The notes under the pieces were generated by a model. That model did no database searches. It saw only the letters and a program-made list of their open reading frames with translations, and was not told the origin of the DNA. The position numbers and the translations under genes were made by a program. Below, piece by piece: positions 1 to 55,701 of a stretch of 64,000 nucleotides of DNA. Positions within the stretch are counted from its first letter, which is position 1. Every line of letters starts with the position of its first letter. Origin of the DNA: a virus. Lineage: Duplodnaviria > Caudoviricetes. The stretch covers positions 1 to 64,000 of IMG/VR virus record IMGVR_UViG_3300028887_000103; one strand, written 5' to 3'.

Positions 1-120
1 ATAAGTGGGGGTGTTAAAAAAGAATATCTCTGTATGTTGAATAGAAAATATCTAACTGTCAATAAAGACAATTACAGTCTTCAAAAATCGGATTATGAAA
101 GGAGTGATGATGTGGAATAA
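1..120 (+). CDS. 3' end of an upstream gene (truncated by window edge)
   Basis: Frame 1 is open from base 1 to TAA at 118-120 and overlaps the next start. Confidence 0.4.
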   Translation: MSGGVKKEYLCMLNRKYLTVNKDNYSLQKSDYERSDDVE

Positions 121-895
121 GTTAGCAGACAAGTGGAACGATTTTGTTGATTTTGATGGGCAAAACAAGAATACAACCTCTAAAAGCGTGAATGGCGGTA
201 AAGGTAGTGGTAATTACGGTCACAAGGGACGACCTGGAGAGGTAGGAGGTAGTGGTAAAGGAGATGGAGGGGCACCAGAAGAATCTGGGCCACTAGCCAC
301 ACTTAAAAAATTCAAAAGGATGCTTGAAAAAACAAACTTTACAAGCGAGGAAGCCCGAAAACTAAGTTTCAACTACTTTGGGTATATGGACAACTGCCAG
401 ACGATTCAGCATTATATGAAAACTGGGGAGGATAATTATCTGGACAGGTTAGATGGGGAAGTGTCCAACATAAAAGCGTCGGAATGTGCTGAACTAATGA
501 AAAAGAAAATACAAGAAACAACATTTGACGAGGATACAATTCTATACAGAGGTATGTATGTCGCAAAAAAATCTCTTGATAAACTAGAGAGAAATGGGTT
601 TACTACGAAGATATTTCAGTCCACTTCTTTAGATTCAAGGGAACCACGAGCACTAGTAGAACACTACAGGGATAAAGAGTGGAACAACCAATCGAAAGTC
701 GGGGTAATGATAAAAATCTACGCAAAGAAAGGTCAACACTATATGGCTTCCCCACTAGCCAATGAACTGGAAATTGTCCTACCACCAGGAGTAAAGTTCA
801 AGGTCAAGAGTAAAGTATTTCGTGAAAACAAACCACCAGAAAAGAACGAGAAGGCTCGTCCTTTGGTATTATATGAGGTAGAATATGAAGAATAG
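95..895 (+). CDS. ADP-ribosyltransferase (VIP2/exoenzyme-like) with N-terminal GGKGSGNYGHKGRPG tag; true start probably 107 or 110
   Basis: R-S-E triad visible: ILYRGM, FQSTSL, NELEIVLPPG; SD AAAGGAG at 98-104. Confidence 0.8.
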   Translation: MKGVMMWNKLADKWNDFVDFDGQNKNTTSKSVNGGKGSGNYGHKGRPGEVGGSGKGDGGAPEESGPLATLKKFKRMLEKTNFTSEEARKLSFNYFGYMDNCQTIQHYMKTGEDNYLDRLDGEVSNIKASECAELMKKKIQETTFDEDTILYRGMYVAKKSLDKLERNGFTTKIFQSTSLDSREPRALVEHYRDKEWNNQSKVGVMIKIYAKKGQHYMASPLANELEIVLPPGVKFKVKSKVFRENKPPEKNEKARPLVLYEVEYEE

Positions 896-2834
896 ATTCG
901 TTTTAGAAGATGAGGATATAATTATTCTTGGAAACAATGACAAAACTATTAACGGCGGGAAGGGTTCAGGTAATTTTGGACATAAAGGCAGACCTGGTGA
1001 AGTGGGCGGGTCGGCACCTCAAGGTAGCACCAGTAGTTTAAGTGACGACAATGCTGAAGTCCTAGAGGTGGAAGCTATTGAAAAATGGTCGTTTCAAGGT
1101 AAATGGACCGATTACAAGAAAAAGTTAGAAGATAAATATTCCGAAAAATATCCAGATTATGAAATTAAAATTAAAAAAGCCGAGGTAACTGCTGGTGGCA
1201 GTAGTGGTCCTGGTTTTATAGATTATATTGTCTGGGGAACAAAAAAAGATACAGAGGATGACGACTATGAATCATTACGAGCAGAAGAAGATTCTTTGGG
1301 CTACAGTCTTGAATTAGAATATGGGAGTAACATTGTTGACTATGTAAAAGAACAGCTTGGTGTCGTGAAAACTGTTGAAAAATATCTTGACAAGGTTCCA
1401 GAAGATATGCGAGAGCAAATGGTAAGAGGGCTAGAAACTACTAAAAAGGATTTAGAAAGAGTTATAGAAAGCCACAAAAAGACCCTCGGTGATGACCTCA
1501 CGGCAGAAAATTTTGAGGAAAAATACGATGCACATAAAAAATCGATGCAGACAAGACTAGATGAAGTTCGTGCAAAGATTAGTAAAATGCGAAGTGAAAA
1601 ACGGGCTATAGACCTAGTGACAGATAGTAAAACACCAGATATGGATTATATCGGGAGTGAAAAGAAACGAATTGATATTGCCAGGAAGTCCATCGGTATT
1701 TTTGAGGACGACGGGTCACTAGCAAGCGATTGGCTAAACGGTGAAATTGGAGAGGCAAAACCAGAAATTAGAAAAGCAATTGAAAAAGATAAAGAGTTGA
1801 GGCAGGCTTGTCTGTCACAAATGTATTATGACTCCAACTCAAAGACCGATTTTAAGAAATGGCTTAAAACTCCAGTTACTCTAAAAAGAGTCCAATTTTC
1901 AGATAGAATTAACAAAGATTCTGGGTTTCTTTCTTTCTCTCAATATGGTGAGTGGGAAGGGACTGGACAAGGCCATAACAAGACTTTCCCAGGTGATATT
2001 CTAGAAGTGAAAATCAAGCCACAAGATACGCTTGGGTCAATTCCTGCTAGAGAGGGGTATGCTTATGCCGAGAAAGAAGTGATGGTCCCAACCGAATTGG
2101 TTACTGATGCGATGAAAAAGAAGAATAGCACTTATAATAAAGTAGAGAACAGCGGGGAGAAAGAAGCAAAAGATGATACGAGCGATAGTCTGGATATTCA
2201 TAGTTCTGATGGTGGGGCTGATGGCAATCGGAATGATAACCAAGCCACCAAGAGCATAAATGGTGGTGCTGGTTCAGGCAACTTTGGTCACGCAGGGCGA
2301 CCCGACTTGGTAGGGGGAAGTTCCCCTCGAGAAGCAAGTGTTTTTGATAATCCGTGGGATTCTGGGGATAATTATTGGAGACCTCTGTTAGATGCAGAAC
2401 TAGAGCCGGGTCAAACATATAGCGAATACTATAGAGATGCGAAAGGTATTGCTACGAAAGTGATTGATATTGCACCAGAAGATTATCTAAGGCTAATCCA
2501 AAAAGGTGGTCATTCAGTAGACAGGGAACACGACGATTTTATCGGATATGGTGCGAGTGAAAAATATAGAGACAAAATCTTATCTGGGGAAAAACTTGCC
2601 ACACCAGATTTTACATTGGAAGCCGATGGCTCTGTTATGGCTCAAGAGGGTAGGCATAGGGCAGAAGGGGCTAGATTGGCTGGGCTAAAGAAAATCCCTG
2701 TTATGATAAGTTATAAAGTAGCGGCGAATAATGTTGACAGTTTTCTGGAAGGATTTAACTACACAGATATCACGAAGTTATATCGTAAAATGGTAACAGA
2801 CCATTACAATAAAATTAACAATAACGAAAGGTAA
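885..2834 (+). CDS. Multidomain head-associated cargo protein: two GGxGSGNFGHxGRP tags, central ART-like domain, C-terminal ParB/Srx-like domain
   Basis: Tags INGGKGSGNFGHKGRPG and INGGAGSGNFGHAGRPD; LKRV..FLSFS..EKEVMVP; QEGRHRAEGARLAGLKKIPV. Confidence 0.7.
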   Translation: MKNRFVLEDEDIIILGNNDKTINGGKGSGNFGHKGRPGEVGGSAPQGSTSSLSDDNAEVLEVEAIEKWSFQGKWTDYKKKLEDKYSEKYPDYEIKIKKAEVTAGGSSGPGFIDYIVWGTKKDTEDDDYESLRAEEDSLGYSLELEYGSNIVDYVKEQLGVVKTVEKYLDKVPEDMREQMVRGLETTKKDLERVIESHKKTLGDDLTAENFEEKYDAHKKSMQTRLDEVRAKISKMRSEKRAIDLVTDSKTPDMDYIGSEKKRIDIARKSIGIFEDDGSLASDWLNGEIGEAKPEIRKAIEKDKELRQACLSQMYYDSNSKTDFKKWLKTPVTLKRVQFSDRINKDSGFLSFSQYGEWEGTGQGHNKTFPGDILEVKIKPQDTLGSIPAREGYAYAEKEVMVPTELVTDAMKKKNSTYNKVENSGEKEAKDDTSDSLDIHSSDGGADGNRNDNQATKSINGGAGSGNFGHAGRPDLVGGSSPREASVFDNPWDSGDNYWRPLLDAELEPGQTYSEYYRDAKGIATKVIDIAPEDYLRLIQKGGHSVDREHDDFIGYGASEKYRDKILSGEKLATPDFTLEADGSVMAQEGRHRAEGARLAGLKKIPVMISYKVAANNVDSFLEGFNYTDITKLYRKMVTDHYNKINNNER

Positions 2835-3366: not shown

Positions 3367-5373
3367 ATGACAATAGAAAATGCAAATAGTCATCCTTATA
3401 AGGTGGCTTTAACGAGTGAGTCTGATGGTATGTTCGCTAATTCCCACCCCTATAAGGTGTCTATCGTTGAGGGTGGAACTGAACTAGTTTCAGAATTACC
3501 CGAAGAAGGAAAGAAAGGGGCGATTTACGTTCTAGTCGACGACGCTGAAAATCCAACAAAAGTCTATGGGATGTATATCTATGACAACGGTTGGGTTCTG
3601 GCAGCACAACCTGTTGACCAAGCAGTTCAACTAGTCGAGGAACTTCCAGAAGAAGGAGAAGAGGGTGTCCTCTATTATGTCCCAAAAACAGGGCAAACAG
3701 ACACCTACGACTTGTACAGGTGGATAAATGACAGTTGGGTTAAAGTTGATACCGATATTGTTCTATATTCTCAAGAAGGTAACGGTATAGATGGTGCTAT
3801 GACTCAATCAGCTACGACTGCAATGAAAGGCAAAGCAAAGGTTCTCACTACAGCTAATTATAACTGGAACTCTGTGTCTAAGGATACGACAGCACCCTAT
3901 GATTCTGTGGCACTCTGGCTCTTAGAGGATGGCTTATATTCTGCTCTAGCAGGAGTAAAAGTAGGAATTTACAAGACTTTCTATTCTGAAAACCCATTAT
4001 GCTACCTAGTGAGCTCCGCAAGTAGCCAAACTAAGAACATTTATACTTTTGAAATGCACCATTCCTACATACAAAAATCTTATGGACCAGTAATAGACAG
4101 ATTCGAGGTTACAGTCGCTACTGGTGTACTATCGGCATCTGCGAGTTTTGCTTCCAGAGATACTGTAACATCTATGATTACAGACTATATTAAGAGTGGA
4201 AATGGTACTCCTTCAGGAGTTCCGATAGAGGGTGCTGGTGTTTTGTATGAAGACAAGACTAGCGGAGAGCTTTACCAATACGACGGAACTAACTGGAACA
4301 AATTTACTACTAAAAACTATACCGATGGTTTAGTCGGTGTGGCTAGAGTTCTTACTGCTGATGACTATAACTATCCAATTGACAATCCAAAAGGAGTAGC
4401 TCTCTGGCTTCTTCCAGCTGGAACATACACACTAGGTTCTGGCTGTGTAGCATACTCGTACGAGATGTCTATGCAAGGGGGTTCTCCAGCGGTAGCAGAC
4501 CAAGACGCGACGTATATAGTTGGAGTTAACGGTACTTATGGACTTCCGATTGTAAAGATTAAAAAAATGGTACAAAGCGTTGGCACTGGGCTTACCAGAA
4601 ACTTTGTTCTTTCTGCAGTCACAGTCACCAACTCCACTGGGTATAGCCCAAGTGGCTTTGAGACTATTGGACCAATACCGCACAACTCGTTGTCATCAGA
4701 TAGCACAGATATTCCACTAGCTGCTTATCAAGGTAAAGTGCTTAATGATAAAATCAGCAACATACAATCTCTTATCCGTAATTTGAGCAGTGCTGATTAT
4801 GATTATCCAGATAACAATCCAGCAGGTGTAGCTTTGTGGAGGCTTTCTGATGGGATTTATCATAGCCCTGAACTTGTTAAGGTTTATCCTACTTCTGCCC
4901 AAAGCTTGGCATTCACGACTTCATCATTCTTCATTAAAGTCTCTGGCGGTCCTAATGATGCAGTACAGCTCTATACAATGACCGGCGCAGGAGGACACAT
5001 ACGATATTTTTGGGTTGACCCTACTACTGGAGATTGTACAGATATTAACCAAGTTTTTCTAAAAGGTAATGATTGTGTTGACAATTTGCTAGCAACAACT
5101 ATCAACCGACCTCTTTCAGCAAATCAAGGTAAGGTGTTGAAAGAAACAATCGATAGTATTGCCATCAAAAATGCAGGAGCTCCAACCACAGCTACCGTAG
5201 GAACAGTAGGACAGATTTTAGAAGATACCACGAATGGTAAACTTTATATCTGCACAGCAGTTTCAGGAAGCACATATACTTGGGATGAGGTAGCGACCAA
5301 GGGCTACGTTGACAATATCGTTGGGAATATCGAGTCTGCCCTAAACATAATTAACAATGGAGGAGAGAGCTAA
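3367..5373 (+). CDS. Fibre/adhesin-like virion protein with repeated modules
   Basis: Three (V/L)L(T/S)xxxY(N/D)x..VALWxL modules; two PL(A/S)AxQGKVL fibre-type motifs; Thr/Ser/Gly-rich. Confidence 0.6.
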   Translation: MTIENANSHPYKVALTSESDGMFANSHPYKVSIVEGGTELVSELPEEGKKGAIYVLVDDAENPTKVYGMYIYDNGWVLAAQPVDQAVQLVEELPEEGEEGVLYYVPKTGQTDTYDLYRWINDSWVKVDTDIVLYSQEGNGIDGAMTQSATTAMKGKAKVLTTANYNWNSVSKDTTAPYDSVALWLLEDGLYSALAGVKVGIYKTFYSENPLCYLVSSASSQTKNIYTFEMHHSYIQKSYGPVIDRFEVTVATGVLSASASFASRDTVTSMITDYIKSGNGTPSGVPIEGAGVLYEDKTSGELYQYDGTNWNKFTTKNYTDGLVGVARVLTADDYNYPIDNPKGVALWLLPAGTYTLGSGCVAYSYEMSMQGGSPAVADQDATYIVGVNGTYGLPIVKIKKMVQSVGTGLTRNFVLSAVTVTNSTGYSPSGFETIGPIPHNSLSSDSTDIPLAAYQGKVLNDKISNIQSLIRNLSSADYDYPDNNPAGVALWRLSDGIYHSPELVKVYPTSAQSLAFTTSSFFIKVSGGPNDAVQLYTMTGAGGHIRYFWVDPTTGDCTDINQVFLKGNDCVDNLLATTINRPLSANQGKVLKETIDSIAIKNAGAPTTATVGTVGQILEDTTNGKLYICTAVSGSTYTWDEVATKGYVDNIVGNIESALNIINNGGES

Positions 5374-6611
5374 TGACAATAGCAAGTGAAATAGAAGATT
5401 TAGCAACAAACTTGTCGGCTGCAAAAACTGCTGTAACCACTGCTGGTGGTACCGTTGGAGATACTGGCTTAGCGGGACTAGCAGAGGAGATTGCTAGCAT
5501 CCCTACTGGGGGCGGTGGGAATGTCCCTATCGGTGATTATGGGAAAGTAGCTTACTATACAAGACTTTCTTTCGTTATCGAGGACGTTATGGCGATGGGA
5601 TGCAATGCAGAGGTGGTAGATTCTTCTAAACTTATGCCTTTTGTAGAAGGAAACGATGTTGAGTTGCGATACGAAGATGGCTCTTGGCAAGTAGGATGGG
5701 GAGGTGGCGATACCTATACAACCGCAGAAGTAGAATCCGAAATTGGTGTTCGTATTACGAACATTGTGGATATTTTTGCAGAAGTTCGTATTATGGGAAC
5801 TTCAGGTATTGACATTACTTCAGAAAGGAAAGAGTGCACGATAGACACGTTACAGGATTTTGGAAAATTCTATACAGATAGTTCCAGTAGCGTTGTTTTA
5901 CCTAACGGTGACACCATTGTCCCTGGTCAAATCGTAGGTTATATTCTTGGTAGCGAAGTTACTAGTATAGGTAATTATTTTCTGGGTGGCTGCGACAATT
6001 TTTTAAGTTTTGATGCTAGTCTTGCTACTGGATTGACTACAATCGGTGATGGCTTCTTAGCCTATATGGACAAAGCAACTGGGGAAATAAGCCTCCCGGC
6101 AGTCACATCTGTTGGTGATTATTTCTTAGCGTCTTCAAATTTTACTTCTGTCAAACTGCCAAACCTTGTAACTGCGGGCAACAGCTTCTGTAGTATTACA
6201 CGACTTCAAGCGATTCCATCATTGCCACATTGTACAACTATTGGAAGTACTTTCTGTAGTAATTGCTCATATCTTCAATCTGCAAGTTTTTCTAGCATTC
6301 CTTTGCTTGAGACGCTTGGGGGAAATGCTCTTGTGACTTGTTCTAGTTTGAAGAGTATAAGTCTTACTGGTATGCCTAATATAACATCAATAGGACAAAG
6401 GTTTGCCCATAATTGTAGTAGCCTGGCTTCCGTGTCCTTTCCAAACAACGACATTTCGACCTGTTTCCAAGCCAGTGACACGGAGTCTTTTTCCGCAGGC
6501 TCATCGTCTGCCTTATCGTACATAGCAGGTATGTCGGCTTCTGGAAACAGTACCAATATTAAAAGCAAATTCCCTAGCGTTGCATATTACCCATACAGAA
6601 AGTGGAGATAA
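5373..6611 (+). CDS. BspA-type leucine-rich-repeat (LRR_5) protein
   Basis: Repeats such as VTSIGNYFL, LTTIGDGFL, VTSVGDYFL, CTTIGSTFC, ITSIGQRFA. Confidence 0.8.
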   Translation: MTIASEIEDLATNLSAAKTAVTTAGGTVGDTGLAGLAEEIASIPTGGGGNVPIGDYGKVAYYTRLSFVIEDVMAMGCNAEVVDSSKLMPFVEGNDVELRYEDGSWQVGWGGGDTYTTAEVESEIGVRITNIVDIFAEVRIMGTSGIDITSERKECTIDTLQDFGKFYTDSSSSVVLPNGDTIVPGQIVGYILGSEVTSIGNYFLGGCDNFLSFDASLATGLTTIGDGFLAYMDKATGEISLPAVTSVGDYFLASSNFTSVKLPNLVTAGNSFCSITRLQAIPSLPHCTTIGSTFCSNCSYLQSASFSSIPLLETLGGNALVTCSSLKSISLTGMPNITSIGQRFAHNCSSLASVSFPNNDISTCFQASDTESFSAGSSSALSYIAGMSASGNSTNIKSKFPSVAYYPYRKWR

Positions 6612-7156: not shown

Positions 7157-7654
7157 ATGGAGGTTTGGAAAAAGATTGCAGAATACGGTGGTAAATATGA
7201 GGTCAGCAATCTTGGAAATGTCAGGAGTTTTTACAGAAAGACTAACGGGGTTATTTTGAAAAAAAGGTTAGATAAGGGTGGGTATGTGCGTTATTACTTA
7301 TACGGCAGAGAAAAACCACAATTCAGATTTGCCCATAGGTTAGTGGCTGAAGCATTTATTCCAAACCCAGATAATAAACCACAAGTCAATCATAAAAATG
7401 GCATCAGAGCAGATAATCGAGTTGAAAATCTTGAGTGGTGCACTGCCTCTGAAAATATGCGACACAGAGTCTATAAACTTAACGGCTTTTCTGTCAGACC
7501 CAGGAGGAAAGTTCTTTGCATAGAGACCAATCAAACTTTTGAAAGTGTTCGTGAGGTATTCAGGTGGTTGAAATATCCCCACTCAGACATAGTGTTTCAT
7601 CTACAAGGGAAACTTTCACACTGTAGAGGGTATCATTTTAAGTATCTTGAATAG
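7157..7654 (+). CDS. NUMOD4-HNH homing endonuclease
   Basis: [17 protein letters not shown]; [35 protein letters not shown]. Confidence 0.92.
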
Positions 7655-8641: not shown

Positions 8642-10759
8642 GTGAATATTGTCAAGAATCAAGTTGAAGTCACTAAGAACTCCTACAATGATGAAGGTGA
8701 AGGAATTGTATCCTTCCCGAATGGACTTTGTATCTCGGACAATAATGTCCAGAGAAACGGCACTAGATATGACATTGATACTTTGGATATTTCCAAGTAT
8801 CAAGGACAACTTACTGCCGACCACGAAGACAAGCTAAAGAATATTATCGGTCGAGTGGAAGGGGTGAGTAAGAAGAATGGTCGTTTGACTGTGAATAAAA
8901 TTGTCTATGCCGTCAAACAGAATCCTTACGCTAGATTGGCGTATGACCTTCTCGTAGGAGGCTTTTCTAATGCCTTCAGCACCGAAACAGTAGGACCTTC
9001 TGCAAACGATATGGATGGAACTCTGTATAATCACGAGTTGGTCGGTCTATCTCAAGTAGTTTGCCCGAATAACTATTCAGCTGTGATAAATACAGTTCGT
9101 AACTCGCTAGAGAAATCTAGACAGGATGGACTTGATGTTACCGGAATAGCTGAAGAGTTCCTAAATGTTAAAAAGGAAGAAAACGAAATGGACGAAGAAT
9201 CCAAAAAAGTCGTAGATGAAGTTGAAATCAAAGAAGTCAACGAAGATGGCACTGTAGAAGCCGTTGTCGAAGGTGAAGAGACTACTCTTGAACCAGCCGA
9301 CGAGGAAACTAAAGAGGCTATCGAGGAAGAAGAGGAAACTGAAGCAGAAGCTGAAGAGGAAATTGAACAAATTGAGGTCGATAACGAAATCTCTGATGCA
9401 GAAGTGAAAGAACTCTTTGCTAAGATTGATAATCTTACCAGCTTAGTAGAAAAAGCTACGGCTGTAGAAGAACCCACTGTAGAGGGTGTTGAGGAAATTG
9501 TCGAAGATGACCTTAACGAAACTACAGATAAAGTAGAAAATAATATAGAGGAAACTCAAATGGACGAAGAGAAAATCCAGAATGCTGTTGCAGAGGCTCT
9601 CAAGGGTTATTTTGCAAATGCAACCCCAGCAACTGCTCCAGAATTCAAAAAAGATGAAAATAGCGTTGCTTTCGCTGATATGTCGTGGAAAGACCGCTAT
9701 AACAAGCAGGTTAACGCTGCTTGGGAAGCCTTCCGTGCTGGCTCTATTGAAGCACGCAAAACCCTCAATGAGATTAACGAGGTCAACCTCGGTGCTCTCA
9801 AGGCTGAGGGTATCGCAAAGAACTCAATGACAATTGCGTCGATGGGTAACTTTGTGATTCCACCGGAGATGTATAAAGAAATCATCGGTAAAAGAACTGA
9901 TTACACTGCTATTATCAAAGCCACCAACTGGCGTGAGACTGATAGCCTAGAGTTCGCTTGGTTGAAGAGAAACGGTGACATTGATATGAAGAATGTTGCC
10001 CTCTGCGATGATGGCGAGGATGGTAATCTCAAACCAATTTCTGAATACACTGCCGAACCACAAACCAGCAAACTAGAGGAAATGGCTGCTGTTACTGTTG
10101 TCTGTAACGCCGCTACCCGTTTCTTCGCTGTTGATTTGTTAGCTGATGTCGCTGCTGGTTATCGCAATGACTATGACCGCAAGCGTGCTCAGTTGGTAAT
10201 TGCCCGTCTTGAGCAGGCTGTTCTTGAGAGTCAACAGAGTGTTGACTATGCTCCAAGCACTGATACCGAAGCGATGGTTGCTTGGCTACAGGCAATTGCT
10301 GAGATTTCTGACGCTACCGTCAATGGAACTCTCATCTTCAACAACAAGACCTTTGCACAGCTCAAAGCTCACGCTCTTGAAGCTGGCGTAAATGGTCCTC
10401 TTTCACACATCTTTACCGATGGTGAAATCCCACAAATCTTTGGAACCCCATACATTGTCGTTCCTAACGATTTGATGCCAACAATTGAATCTTCTGATGC
10501 TATCGCCTTTACGGTTGATGGTGAGGAAGTGCCTATCACTCACGCTGTGTTCTATGCTGACCTTAGCGAGTTCGTAGGTTACACTTCTGGTGGCTTACAA
10601 TATGATGTGGCTACCGAGGCTTCTTATGAAGTCAATGGAACTGTCCGTTCTGCATACCAGAGGAATGAATTGGTGCTCCGTGGCTCCTTCTTCCGTGGTG
10701 GTGCAATCAAGGATGTGACTCGTGTATCTGGTATCAAGCAACTTGCTACCGAGTCTTAA
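8642..10759 (+). CDS. Prohead protease - acidic scaffold - HK97-fold major capsid protein fusion
   Basis: N-terminal protease-like region (LTADHEDK..IIGRV..FSTET), Glu-rich linker, capsid-like C-terminal part (GNFVIPPEM..YQRNELVLRG); directly upstream of connector genes. Confidence 0.85.
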   Translation: MNIVKNQVEVTKNSYNDEGEGIVSFPNGLCISDNNVQRNGTRYDIDTLDISKYQGQLTADHEDKLKNIIGRVEGVSKKNGRLTVNKIVYAVKQNPYARLAYDLLVGGFSNAFSTETVGPSANDMDGTLYNHELVGLSQVVCPNNYSAVINTVRNSLEKSRQDGLDVTGIAEEFLNVKKEENEMDEESKKVVDEVEIKEVNEDGTVEAVVEGEETTLEPADEETKEAIEEEEETEAEAEEEIEQIEVDNEISDAEVKELFAKIDNLTSLVEKATAVEEPTVEGVEEIVEDDLNETTDKVENNIEETQMDEEKIQNAVAEALKGYFANATPATAPEFKKDENSVAFADMSWKDRYNKQVNAAWEAFRAGSIEARKTLNEINEVNLGALKAEGIAKNSMTIASMGNFVIPPEMYKEIIGKRTDYTAIIKATNWRETDSLEFAWLKRNGDIDMKNVALCDDGEDGNLKPISEYTAEPQTSKLEEMAAVTVVCNAATRFFAVDLLADVAAGYRNDYDRKRAQLVIARLEQAVLESQQSVDYAPSTDTEAMVAWLQAIAEISDATVNGTLIFNNKTFAQLKAHALEAGVNGPLSHIFTDGEIPQIFGTPYIVVPNDLMPTIESSDAIAFTVDGEEVPITHAVFYADLSEFVGYTSGGLQYDVATEASYEVNGTVRSAYQRNELVLRGSFFRGGAIKDVTRVSGIKQLATES

Positions 10760-54498: not shown

Positions 54499-55076
54499 GA
54501 GATTTTAACCCAGATAACATACAGATTGTGGGTATAGATGAGGTTCGGCCTAACGGCTGGAACCCTAAACTTGAAAATACACCAGAATATCAAAAGATTG
54601 TAGAAAGTATCCAAGTCAATGGCTTCAAGTCCCCTATTATCGTGCGAGAAGTAGAAGGAGAAGACGGCTATGAAATCTGTGACGGTTGTCAGAGATGGAA
54701 TGCCGCTAAACAACTAGGCTTTGACAAAATCTACATTTACAACTTGGGTAAGATTTCAGAAAGTGAAGCGAAGTCTATCACTATCTGGATGGAAACTCAA
54801 GTCAAGTTTGATGAGTTGCAACTTGCACCACTTGTGGCAGAATTAAACGATTTGCAAATGACAATGCCATACACGGAAGATGAAGTTCAAGATTACATAA
54901 ATATGCTTCACTTCGATTTTGAGGGTGATGGCAAAATCAGTTTGAGTGTTAAATGCACTCCAGAACAGTTCGATAAGATTAAAGAATGTCTGAATGTCTA
55001 TACTTACAACAATGAAGTGGAGGAAGACAAGGCTTTGGTGGAAATGGTAAAACTAGGAGTGAAGAGGTATGAGTAG
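54495..55076 (+). CDS. ParB-N-terminal-domain protein 2
   Basis: VRPNGWNPK..GFKSPIIVR..YEICDGCQR. Confidence 0.8.
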   Translation: MRDFNPDNIQIVGIDEVRPNGWNPKLENTPEYQKIVESIQVNGFKSPIIVREVEGEDGYEICDGCQRWNAAKQLGFDKIYIYNLGKISESEAKSITIWMETQVKFDELQLAPLVAELNDLQMTMPYTEDEVQDYINMLHFDFEGDGKISLSVKCTPEQFDKIKECLNVYTYNNEVEEDKALVEMVKLGVKRYE

Positions 55077-55701
55077 TGATTTTGACCCAAAAAATCTGAA
55101 GAAGATTAAAATATCTGAAATGCTGTTTAACGACTGGAATCCGAAGGAGAATGAAAAAGACTATGAGAAGGTCAAGAAGTCGATAGTCGTCAATGGATTG
55201 GTCACTCCAATTTTTGTGCGTAAAACAGATGAGGGCTATGAGGTTGTCGATGGTAATCAGAGGGCAAGGGCTTGCAGAGAGTTAGGTTACACAGAAATCT
55301 ATGTCTATGATTTAGGTGAAATCAGTGAGGCAGAGGCAAAACAACTAGTTCTTTATCTTCAGATTCAAGTTCCGTTCGTAACTGATATGCTAGCACCAAT
55401 CGCTGTGGAATTGGAAAGTCTAGGTATGGAGTTGCCCTACAATGAAAAAGAGATGCAGAAGTTTCGTGATTTAGAAGCGTTTGATATGGACACGGCTTAT
55501 GAAGACGAAGAACCAGTGCCAGAGCCAGAAAAACCAGAAGACGAGATAAAAGAAAAACTTAAAACCTACAAGATTAAACTCCAACCAGAAGATTTCGATA
55601 TAGTGCGAGATGCTATTGATAAAGTCATAATGTCCGAGAATGTGAATGAAGGCAGGGCTTTGGAGTTGCTTTTGCTTGTGGCGATGGAATGGGAAAGTTA
55701 G
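55069..55701 (+). CDS. ParB-N-terminal-domain protein 3
   Basis: FNDWNPK..GLVTPIFVR..YEVVDGNQR. Confidence 0.8.
   Translation: MSSDFDPKNLKKIKISEMLFNDWNPKENEKDYEKVKKSIVVNGLVTPIFVRKTDEGYEVVDGNQRARACRELGYTEIYVYDLGEISEAEAKQLVLYLQIQVPFVTDMLAPIAVELESLGMELPYNEKEMQKFRDLEAFDMDTAYEDEEPVPEPEKPEDEIKEKLKTYKIKLQPEDFDIVRDAIDKVIMSENVNEGRALELLLLVAMEWES

Follow-up and report, generated by a model that had tools for sequence, protein, structure and literature searches.

A repeated glycine-rich peptide precedes interchangeable modules among the head genes of an uncultured phage and is probably the constant part of a junction element on capsid-loaded proteins

We analyzed a window consisting of the first 64 kb of an 80,372-bp IMG/VR phage record (IMGVR_UViG_3300028887_000103), which is rated complete and derives from an uncultured phage. 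At the start of the window, two adjacent open reading frames (ORFs), ORF1 and ORF2, carry three copies of a glycine-rich peptide, hereafter referred to as the tag, with the consensus x-x-x-N-GG(K/A)GSGN(F/Y)GHxGRP(G/D)(E/L)VGGS. An earlier reading of the same DNA (the original prediction) had claimed three such copies in two ORFs, and we confirm them at exact positions 182-253, 942-1013, and 2250-2321. Below, the four residues ending in the Asn before GG are called the front edge, and the 20 residues that follow are called the core. The features of the locus are as follows.

95..895, plus strand: ORF1 (266 residues), with a leader, a tag, and an ADP-ribosyltransferase (ART); from the ORF listing, the database record of the same protein beginning at Met6.
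182..193, plus strand: front edge of tag copy 1, K-S-V-N, with the predicted cut after Asn33 of ORF1; this Asn is invariant before GG in 12 copies, and the position is phage-specific.
194..253, plus strand: core of tag copy 1, GGKGSGNYGHKGRPGEVGGS, from the alignment of copies.
398..829, plus strand: R-S-ExE ART domain of ORF1 (R152, S176-T-S, E224-x-E226), from a jackhmmer profile, Atlas, and a weak PHROG Alt-like match.
885..2834, plus strand: ORF2 (649 residues), with a leader, a tag, an ART-like module, a spacer, a second tag, and a ParB_N-like module.
885..941, plus strand: leader of ORF2, MKNRFVLEDEDIIILG..., common to seven stand-alone proteins of related phages.
942..1013, plus strand: tag copy 2, with front edge K-T-I-N at 942-953 and core at 954-1013.
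1731..2099, plus strand: divergent ART-like domain of ORF2 (R335, S350-x-S352, E396-x-E398), from hhalign to an ART profile.
2133..2249, plus strand: Asn/Ser/Asp-rich spacer of ORF2 between the Asn sites KVEN and KSIN, from BLAST to the leaders of relatives.
2250..2321, plus strand: tag copy 3 (internal), with front edge K-S-I-N at 2250-2261 and core at 2262-2321.
2322..2831, plus strand: ParB_N-like module of ORF2, with EGRHR at residues 588-592, from hhalign to the ParB_N protein of the window.
8642..10759, plus strand: 705-residue fusion of a head protease, an acidic scaffold, and an HK97-type capsid protein, from its layout; close relatives have PF05065 (Phage_capsid).

The three copies turned out to be an incomplete set. 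When ORF1 was searched against its own genome, the two copies in ORF2 were matched at E 8e-12 and 3e-9, and nine further copies were found at genome positions 67.9-79.6 kb, outside the window: one in a 311-residue protein, five in a 999-residue protein, and three in a 1587-residue protein. In total, the 80,372-bp genome holds 12 copies in five adjacent head-region genes. The 1587-residue polyprotein combines an N-terminal portal domain (Pfam E 3.4e-16), an HExxH motif (IFHELAHAF), and a MuF-like region, and its gene stops 29 bases short of the end of the record. If the two ends of the record join, as we infer, all five tagged genes would be contiguous, flanked by the terminase and capsid genes.

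Across the 12 copies, 16 of 36 aligned columns are invariant, including the Asn before GG. Every copy precedes a module and none starts a protein. The proposal that the tag heads domains needs one correction, as the tag is not confined to N-terminal regions; copy 3 is internal and lies 459 residues into ORF2. In their DNA, the copies share on average 64% identity (range 51-81%) and use all synonymous choices, including switches between AGY and TCN for Ser and between CGN and AGR for Arg. Because the codons are scrambled across copies, the tag must be kept by selection on the peptide, rather than as a DNA repeat or through recent duplication.

The modules behind the three tags had been called ART, ART-like, and ParB-like, and all three calls hold. 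For ORF1, residues 102-245 were recruited into an iterated ADPrib_exo_Tox profile (jackhmmer, seeded from a Pfam-confirmed domain) at E 3.8e-30. The Atlas model lies nearest to T4 Alt-type ARTs, with a template-modeling score of 0.73, and its feature score to PF03496 clusters is 0.94. In addition, Arg152, Ser176-Thr-Ser, and Glu224-x-Glu226 occur in the order that defines R-S-E ADP-ribosyltransferases (PF03496). The domain is below detection by Pfam's own PF03496 model, the PHROG match to Alt-like proteins is weak, and a single-sequence AlphaFold2 model of ORF1 was unusable, with a predicted local distance difference test score (pLDDT) of 37.

ORF1 carries a single effector, and ORF2 carries two unrelated effector modules in one polypeptide. 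The first, residues 283-405, has no Pfam match of its own; its family (7 sequences) matches the ART profile (77 sequences) by hhalign at 82% and E 1e-5, with R, S-x-S, and ExE aligned, and its homologs keep LYRG, FLSYS, and ExEIMVP. On this profile-profile match, we refer to the module as ART-like rather than as an ART. In one relative, the PF03496 match falls in another module. The second, residues 480-649, likewise lacks a direct Pfam match. Its family (31 members) was aligned by hhalign, at 87% and E 3.7e-6, to the Pfam-confirmed ParB_N protein at window positions 55069-55701, within the ParB_N region, and unrelated controls scored 0.1%. Atlas also leads from this module to ParB_N clusters, and its EGRHR is a motif of the (D/E)GxHR type, as expected for ParB_N (PF02195). 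By BLASTP, the ORF1 ART showed no paralogy to the module at the C-terminus of the portal polyprotein, and none was detected to the ART-like part of ORF2 either. Searches of the ORF1 and ORF2 modules against the PDB (phmmer) returned chance matches only. Neither ORF1 nor ORF2 has a MuF domain by Pfam or PHROGs; a MuF-like region lies in the neighboring portal polyprotein instead.

We then considered how far the tag extends beyond this phage. At a threshold of E <= 1e-3, a profile of the 12 copies matched 3,978 representatives of 50%-identity protein clusters, with up to 9-10 copies per protein. On 76 viral contigs, we counted 329 tags in 201 ORFs, with several per contig in most cases. Companion genes were identified by masking the tags and then clustering all pieces of the 76 viral loci. 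The commonest companion group is the MuF module (62 of 76 loci), which is usually inside a tagged ORF itself; portal, terminase, two head-maturation protease families, and capsid proteins are also common. Similarly, 22 of 24 matches in bacterial genomes lie in the same type of prophage head module, with hosts that include Oxalobacter, Clostridia, Lachnospiraceae, Elusimicrobia, Sulfuricaulis, and Terriglobus. Oxalobacter paraformigenes HOxBLS (L086) and Clostridiales bacterium CCNA10 (L091) are cultured hosts of tagged prophages.

The content of the modules varies widely. Among 114 modules behind tags in other phages, Pfam recognized 15 ADPrib_exo_Tox, 3 ART-PolyVal, 3 MuF, 2 Zeta toxin, and 2 topoisomerase IB domains, together with GNAT, Fic, DRAT, DUF3626, and LPD1, and the majority have no family. 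In further tag proteins, precomputed annotation also lists portal, NUDIX, RelA/SpoT, PARP, Tpt1, and 2-5 RNA ligase domains. The tag therefore does not always precede the same domain, whereas a constant partner domain was what the original prediction had named as a refuting result, and the view that it heads interchangeable enzyme domains beside head genes is borne out by the portal, MuF, protease, and capsid context and by the many unrelated domains. We found no model of the tag in Pfam, PHROGs, or NCBIfam, and a profile search of PDB sequences was also empty. A text search of the literature for the motif and its variants returned no relevant paper, and a term search found no mention of the tag in PMC5512222, PMC5576092, and PMC3482391.

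Comparison across phages separates the element into two parts. The 20-residue core, GGxGSG(N/H)FGHxGRPGxVGGS, is near-universal and hardly variable. The residue before GG is near-fixed within a phage and varies between phages: L or A (with R or K two residues earlier), R (in V-E-R), K, N (as in the present phage), D, or E. The entropy at this position is 2.75 bits in total and 0.37 bits within phages, compared with 1.79 bits after shuffling. Variable positions elsewhere in the core show far weaker phage specificity; therefore, the within-phage invariance before GG is not just the result of recent duplication. The front edge also follows the family of the head-maturation protease. Specifically, loci with protease cluster a (21 loci) mostly have R/K-x-L/A before GG, and all 10 loci with cluster b have D. 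When modeled by AlphaFold2 with a 148-row tag alignment, the tag is predicted to be coil (pLDDT 63), which indicates that the core is a linear motif and not a fold of its own.

In four phages (L012, L017, L064, and L071), the tag is replaced by alternative short peptides, NPYHDxxGRFTSG and DNPEGINQYS. These stand directly behind the same phage-specific front edge in L012, L064, and L071, and in L017 behind K-R, not behind the Asn of that phage. That unrelated caps follow one and the same front edge identifies the front edge as a distinct element. We also observed that NPYHDxxGRF resembles the second half of the tag. In L074 (11065-12990), a tag comes immediately after the head protease domain itself, and the related L076 (12637-15144) has at the corresponding position two copies of LRDA followed by DNPEGINQYS.

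The front-edge motif recurs in the major capsid protein, at the point where its variable N-terminus meets the conserved body, in two capsid families. In family a, phages with R-x-L/A tags have h-R-x-(L/A) followed by (S/G/A)-P, as in FRAL/GP, FRAA/SP, LRSL/SP, LRTL/SP, and LRAL/SP. An independent Sulfuricaulis prophage has GFRAL/AP in its capsid protein, and its tags carry VRAL, FKAL, and LRAA. In family b, 16 sequences, all from D-tag phages, have (R/N)FD followed by S, D, or A. Phage L050, whose tag is of the Asn type, has Asn at the aligned capsid position. None of these putative capsid-protein sites is followed by the 20-residue core. For the R-class phages, h-E-R motifs are present, uncounted, in head-region proteins.

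In the present phage, the 705-residue fusion is presumed to be both the processing enzyme and the reference substrate, and the cut sites assigned within it are predictions. Its N-terminus resembles a head protease (about residues 1-170), and its middle is very acidic and scaffold-like. Conserved Asn sites lie in its scaffold-capsid junction, namely KTLN at residues 373-376, EVN, and AKN. The fusion has >1,000 homologs, many of them 79-98% identical, and therefore belongs to a large group of roughly 80-kb phages; in a few relatives, the capsid part (about 400 residues) stands alone. Searches with PF05065 and with the capsid fusion of this phage gave no matches in five other tagged phages, and a pattern search of the viral contigs found no close relatives of the fusion.

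A second kind of candidate protease is present in the tagged modules. HExxH motifs occur there 35 times compared with 2.9 expected (12-fold), in 25 of 67 loci and in a typical zincin context. Examples of zincin-type HExxH modules inside tagged polyproteins are found in L009 (11580-16343; genome 75580-80343) and L042 (13206-16669). In L042, two such proteins have a divergent tag, GGPGSGH(K/H)(K/G)HKGIP(G/K)HRGGS, which the profile missed.

Four tagged ORFs of this phage open with a leader; these leaders are 19-33 residues long and do not resemble one another. Where a tag lies close to the N-terminus in other phages (94 ORFs), GG is always at least 12 codons away from the preceding stop codon. 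Seven stand-alone proteins of relatives start like ORF2, with MN(x)RFVLxDEDI(I/V)(I/V)L (in fuller form, MN(x)RFVLxDEDIIILG), and their sequences diverge after the tag; the relatives named for this shared leader are P0155, P0161, P0200, P0205, P0211, P0223, P0236, and P0153. The leader is mostly followed by an Asn/Ser/Asp-rich spacer and, in six of seven, by x-x-x-N and a full tag, the tag of P0153 being degenerate. None of the phage's other tagged ORFs with a leader has the ORF2-type leader, which may be a targeting peptide that is removed or, alternatively, a 5' end conserved for the exchange of cassettes.

These relatives also record the movement of modules between stand-alone and fused positions. 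By BLAST, ORF2 residues 424-485 are homologous to residues 15-76 of P0205, P0223, and P0200, i.e., to part of the leaders of stand-alone cargo proteins. The homology of the 35 residues before the internal ORF2 tag to leader spacers suggests that two such genes fused to form ORF2. The portal-bearing polyprotein P0154 has this spacer, the tag, and the ParB-like module (55% identical) immediately behind its MuF end (...KTLN). P0153 contains an ART that is 67% identical to that of ORF1, preceded by EN and then DFPGHKGRKGIGRGGS; here, the GGxGSGN half of the core is missing, the second half (F-x-GHKGRxG...GGS) is kept, and the ART is intact.

Between the cargo genes and the capsid gene, the window contains other genes. 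A 668-residue protein with phage tail-fiber repeats and a 412-residue BspA-type leucine-rich-repeat protein occupy positions 3367-6611, an unusual location for fiber-like proteins. An HNH endonuclease (PHROG E 2.4e-45) follows at 7157-7654, between the cargo and fiber genes and the capsid gene.

Altogether, the tag is repeated, selected at the level of the peptide, modular, and resident in head modules, and its front edge covaries with protease family and capsid motif. We consider it probable that the tag forms the constant portion of a junction element in two parts, a protease site and a retained cap, on proteins that are loaded into the capsid. All studied prohead proteases trim the N-terminus of the capsid protein, and in phages T4 and SPN3US a single motif serves for cutting both the capsid protein and the head proteins that are ejected (PMC9026906, PMC7411985). 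The simplest reading of the front edge is that it is the site of the maturation protease. Specifically, the phage-specific motif ending before GG (x-x-x-Asn in this phage) would be cut by the head-maturation protease that the phage itself encodes and that would also trim the major capsid protein, and the unstructured 20-residue core would become the new N-terminus, or cap, of each module. The part ahead of the element would be a disposable leader of about 20-30 residues in stand-alone genes (ORF1 and ORF2) and the previous module in polyproteins (ORF2 internally, the 999-residue protein, and the portal-MuF protein). Processing in the procapsid would thereby release the ART, the ART-like enzyme, and the ParB_N-like protein, each with the same cap.

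The core is kept across detectably unrelated capsids and proteases and is absent from the capsid sites; therefore, it is more than a protease site. We favor the idea that the cap is a shared handle, retained on the released module, for recruitment into the procapsid, for exit via portal and tail at infection, or for both. This is the weakest step of the explanation, and we put it well below an even chance. A broader form of the idea, in which the retained cap would be a universal cargo handle that loads enzymes and threads them out in thousands of unrelated tailed phages, with the front edge as the release site, is possible but rather doubtful. The cleavage, the cutting enzyme, the presence in virions, the injection, and the role of the cap are all predicted here from sequence.

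Several points weigh against this explanation. Shared ancestry confounds the association of the front edge with the protease family, for which only about three or four independent lineages speak. In capsid family a, members L052, L054, and L059 do not cleanly match their own tags. In the present phage, several conserved Asn sites compete as the capsid cut site, and a scoring matrix from the 12 front edges was too unspecific to locate it. A protease site needs few residues, so that cleavage leaves the conservation of 20 residues across unrelated proteases and capsids unexplained, and the half core of P0153 suggests that the full core is not indispensable. Zincin-type HExxH modules, present also in this phage, could be the processing enzyme instead. 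Finally, we found no cultured phage with the tag: megablast and tblastn searches against 50,697 phage records gave nothing useful, a result that is not evidence of absence, since the low-complexity filter probably masks the tag.

Alternatively, in a pure form of the original prediction, the peptide could be a docking signal that guides any attached enzyme into the procapsid or lets it leave via the tail; the front edge would then be left uncut, and the residue before GG would be part of the docking surface. Such a signal would fit a predicted unstructured linear motif that is conserved across phages with unrelated proteases and capsid proteins, is followed by many unrelated domains, and is always found in head modules (with MuF in 62 of 76 loci). 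However, docking leaves unexplained why the tag never starts a protein and why the front-edge motif appears at the N-terminal boundary of the capsid protein and before unrelated caps, and modules already fused to the portal need no docking signal. We therefore regard docking without cleavage as unlikely, though it deserves to be kept in mind. It is quite unlikely that the junctions are cut, in the head or after injection, by the polyproteins' own zincin-like metallopeptidase modules without the head serine protease. The HExxH excess described above (35 compared with 2.9 expected, in 25 of 67 loci), the HExxH in this phage's own portal-MuF polyprotein, and the role of the metallopeptidase as main hub of the polyvalent proteins (PMC5512222) all speak for it. 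Yet the module is present in only about a third of the loci (which are partial), and variation in the front edge goes along with the head-protease family and with the capsid boundary, an expected target of the head protease.

That the whole 24-residue element is an extended protease site plus a flexible glycine linker, with a core that has no function after cleavage, would account for a glycine-rich, unstructured element at domain boundaries. However, the putative capsid sites do without the core, the invariance of H, R, P, F, N, and S over about 4,000 clusters exceeds what a linker needs, and the core stays constant while the protease family changes, which makes this explanation decidedly improbable. 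The least credible alternative is that the repeats are DNA-level recombination sites for shuffling cassettes between genes. Module content does differ strongly among related phages, and modules do shift between stand-alone and fused positions, but copies that are 51-81% identical in DNA, with codons randomized up to Ser and Arg switches, offer no stretch long enough for homologous recombination, and the scrambled synonymous codons effectively refute a DNA recombination repeat. Two further candidates were considered from the sequence alone, each with a point against it: an AT-hook-like GRP motif for DNA binding, as the flanks of GRP are not basic, and self-cleavage via Asn, as most phages have another residue before GG. 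The reading that we prefer thus remains a protease site at the front edge followed by a cap that would be retained.

The first minutes of infection, with host takeover and counter-defense, are decided by phage proteins that travel in the capsid and are delivered together with the DNA; such proteins are hard to recognize from sequence. If the two-part element is real, it would yield a sequence-only catalog of candidate injected effectors comprising about 4,000 clusters, most without a family, from phages of Clostridia, Proteobacteria, Elusimicrobia, and other hosts. The cleavage specificity of the head protease would become predictable for each phage from the residue before GG. In addition, a shared element that stays on the mature protein would provide an alternative to the T4 targeting-peptide model, and the polyvalent-protein concept would be sharpened by defined module starts. 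Were the cap a universal handle, the sequence would directly reveal injected effectors, and proteins of choice could be loaded into phage heads by means of the tag.

Among known systems, the cargo-loading peptides of encapsulins are short conserved peptides that load diverse enzymes into an HK97-fold shell; they are usually C-terminal and involve neither cleavage nor delivery. They are unrelated to the tag in sequence, and the similarity is one of analogy only. A closer parallel is the capsid targeting sequence (CTS) of T4, which is carried by IPI-III and Alt and removed by the prohead protease gp21 (PMC9026906, PMC7411985). Like the tag, the CTS is a short N-terminal element on unrelated proteins, including an ADP-ribosyltransferase, that are packaged in the head and injected, properties that for the tagged proteins are predicted from sequence alone. 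The CTS is linked to a prohead-protease site, the motif of which the capsid protein has as well, and is modular enough to carry foreign proteins; for the tag, sequence covariation in two capsid families supports a putative link of this kind. In contrast to the tag, with which it has no sequence similarity, the CTS has its targeting determinant in a removed piece of roughly 10 residues, whereas here the 20 conserved residues follow the predicted cut and would be retained. Moreover, the CTS belongs to one phage group, whereas the tag repeats inside polyproteins and is common to phages with unrelated capsid genes. The ejection proteins of the giant phages SPN3US and phiKZ (PMC7411985, PMC5694885) provide a further parallel, in that the prohead protease cuts the capsid protein and numerous proteins inside the head at A/S/G-x-E; they differ in having propeptides of >100 residues, which are removed, and no conserved retained cap has been described for them.

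With respect to gene architecture, the tagged genes resemble the polyvalent proteins of phages and conjugative elements described by Iyer, Burroughs, Anand, de Souza, and Aravind in 2017 (PMC5512222). These are multi-effector polypeptides beside virion genes, fused to MuF or portal, for which processing into effectors was proposed, with a zincin peptidase as processor; their hub domains include ART, ParB-type, MuF, and zincin metallopeptidase domains. Correspondingly, the tagged genes of this phage lie among the virion late genes, with the capsid fusion at 8642-10759 and the portal-MuF polyprotein just upstream, and the ParB-like module is fused to a portal-bearing protein in P0154; ORF2 has two effector modules, and ORF1 is a solo version with one. 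The difference is that a term search of PMC5512222 for words on linkers, spacers, and processing found no junction motif, whereas a 20-residue peptide with a phage-specific front edge stands at every boundary here. The MuF polymorphic toxins (Jamet et al. 2017; PMC5576092) are alike in that variable toxin or enzyme domains are joined to MuF, a head protein, and are presumed to be carried within the capsid; they differ in that ORF1 and ORF2 have no MuF domain, and a search of PMC5576092 for the terms linker, glycine, motif, and cleavage found nothing. The peptide itself was found in none of the family libraries, solved structures, or papers searched; the architecture fits that of the polyvalent proteins, and the logic fits that of the T4 targeting sequence.

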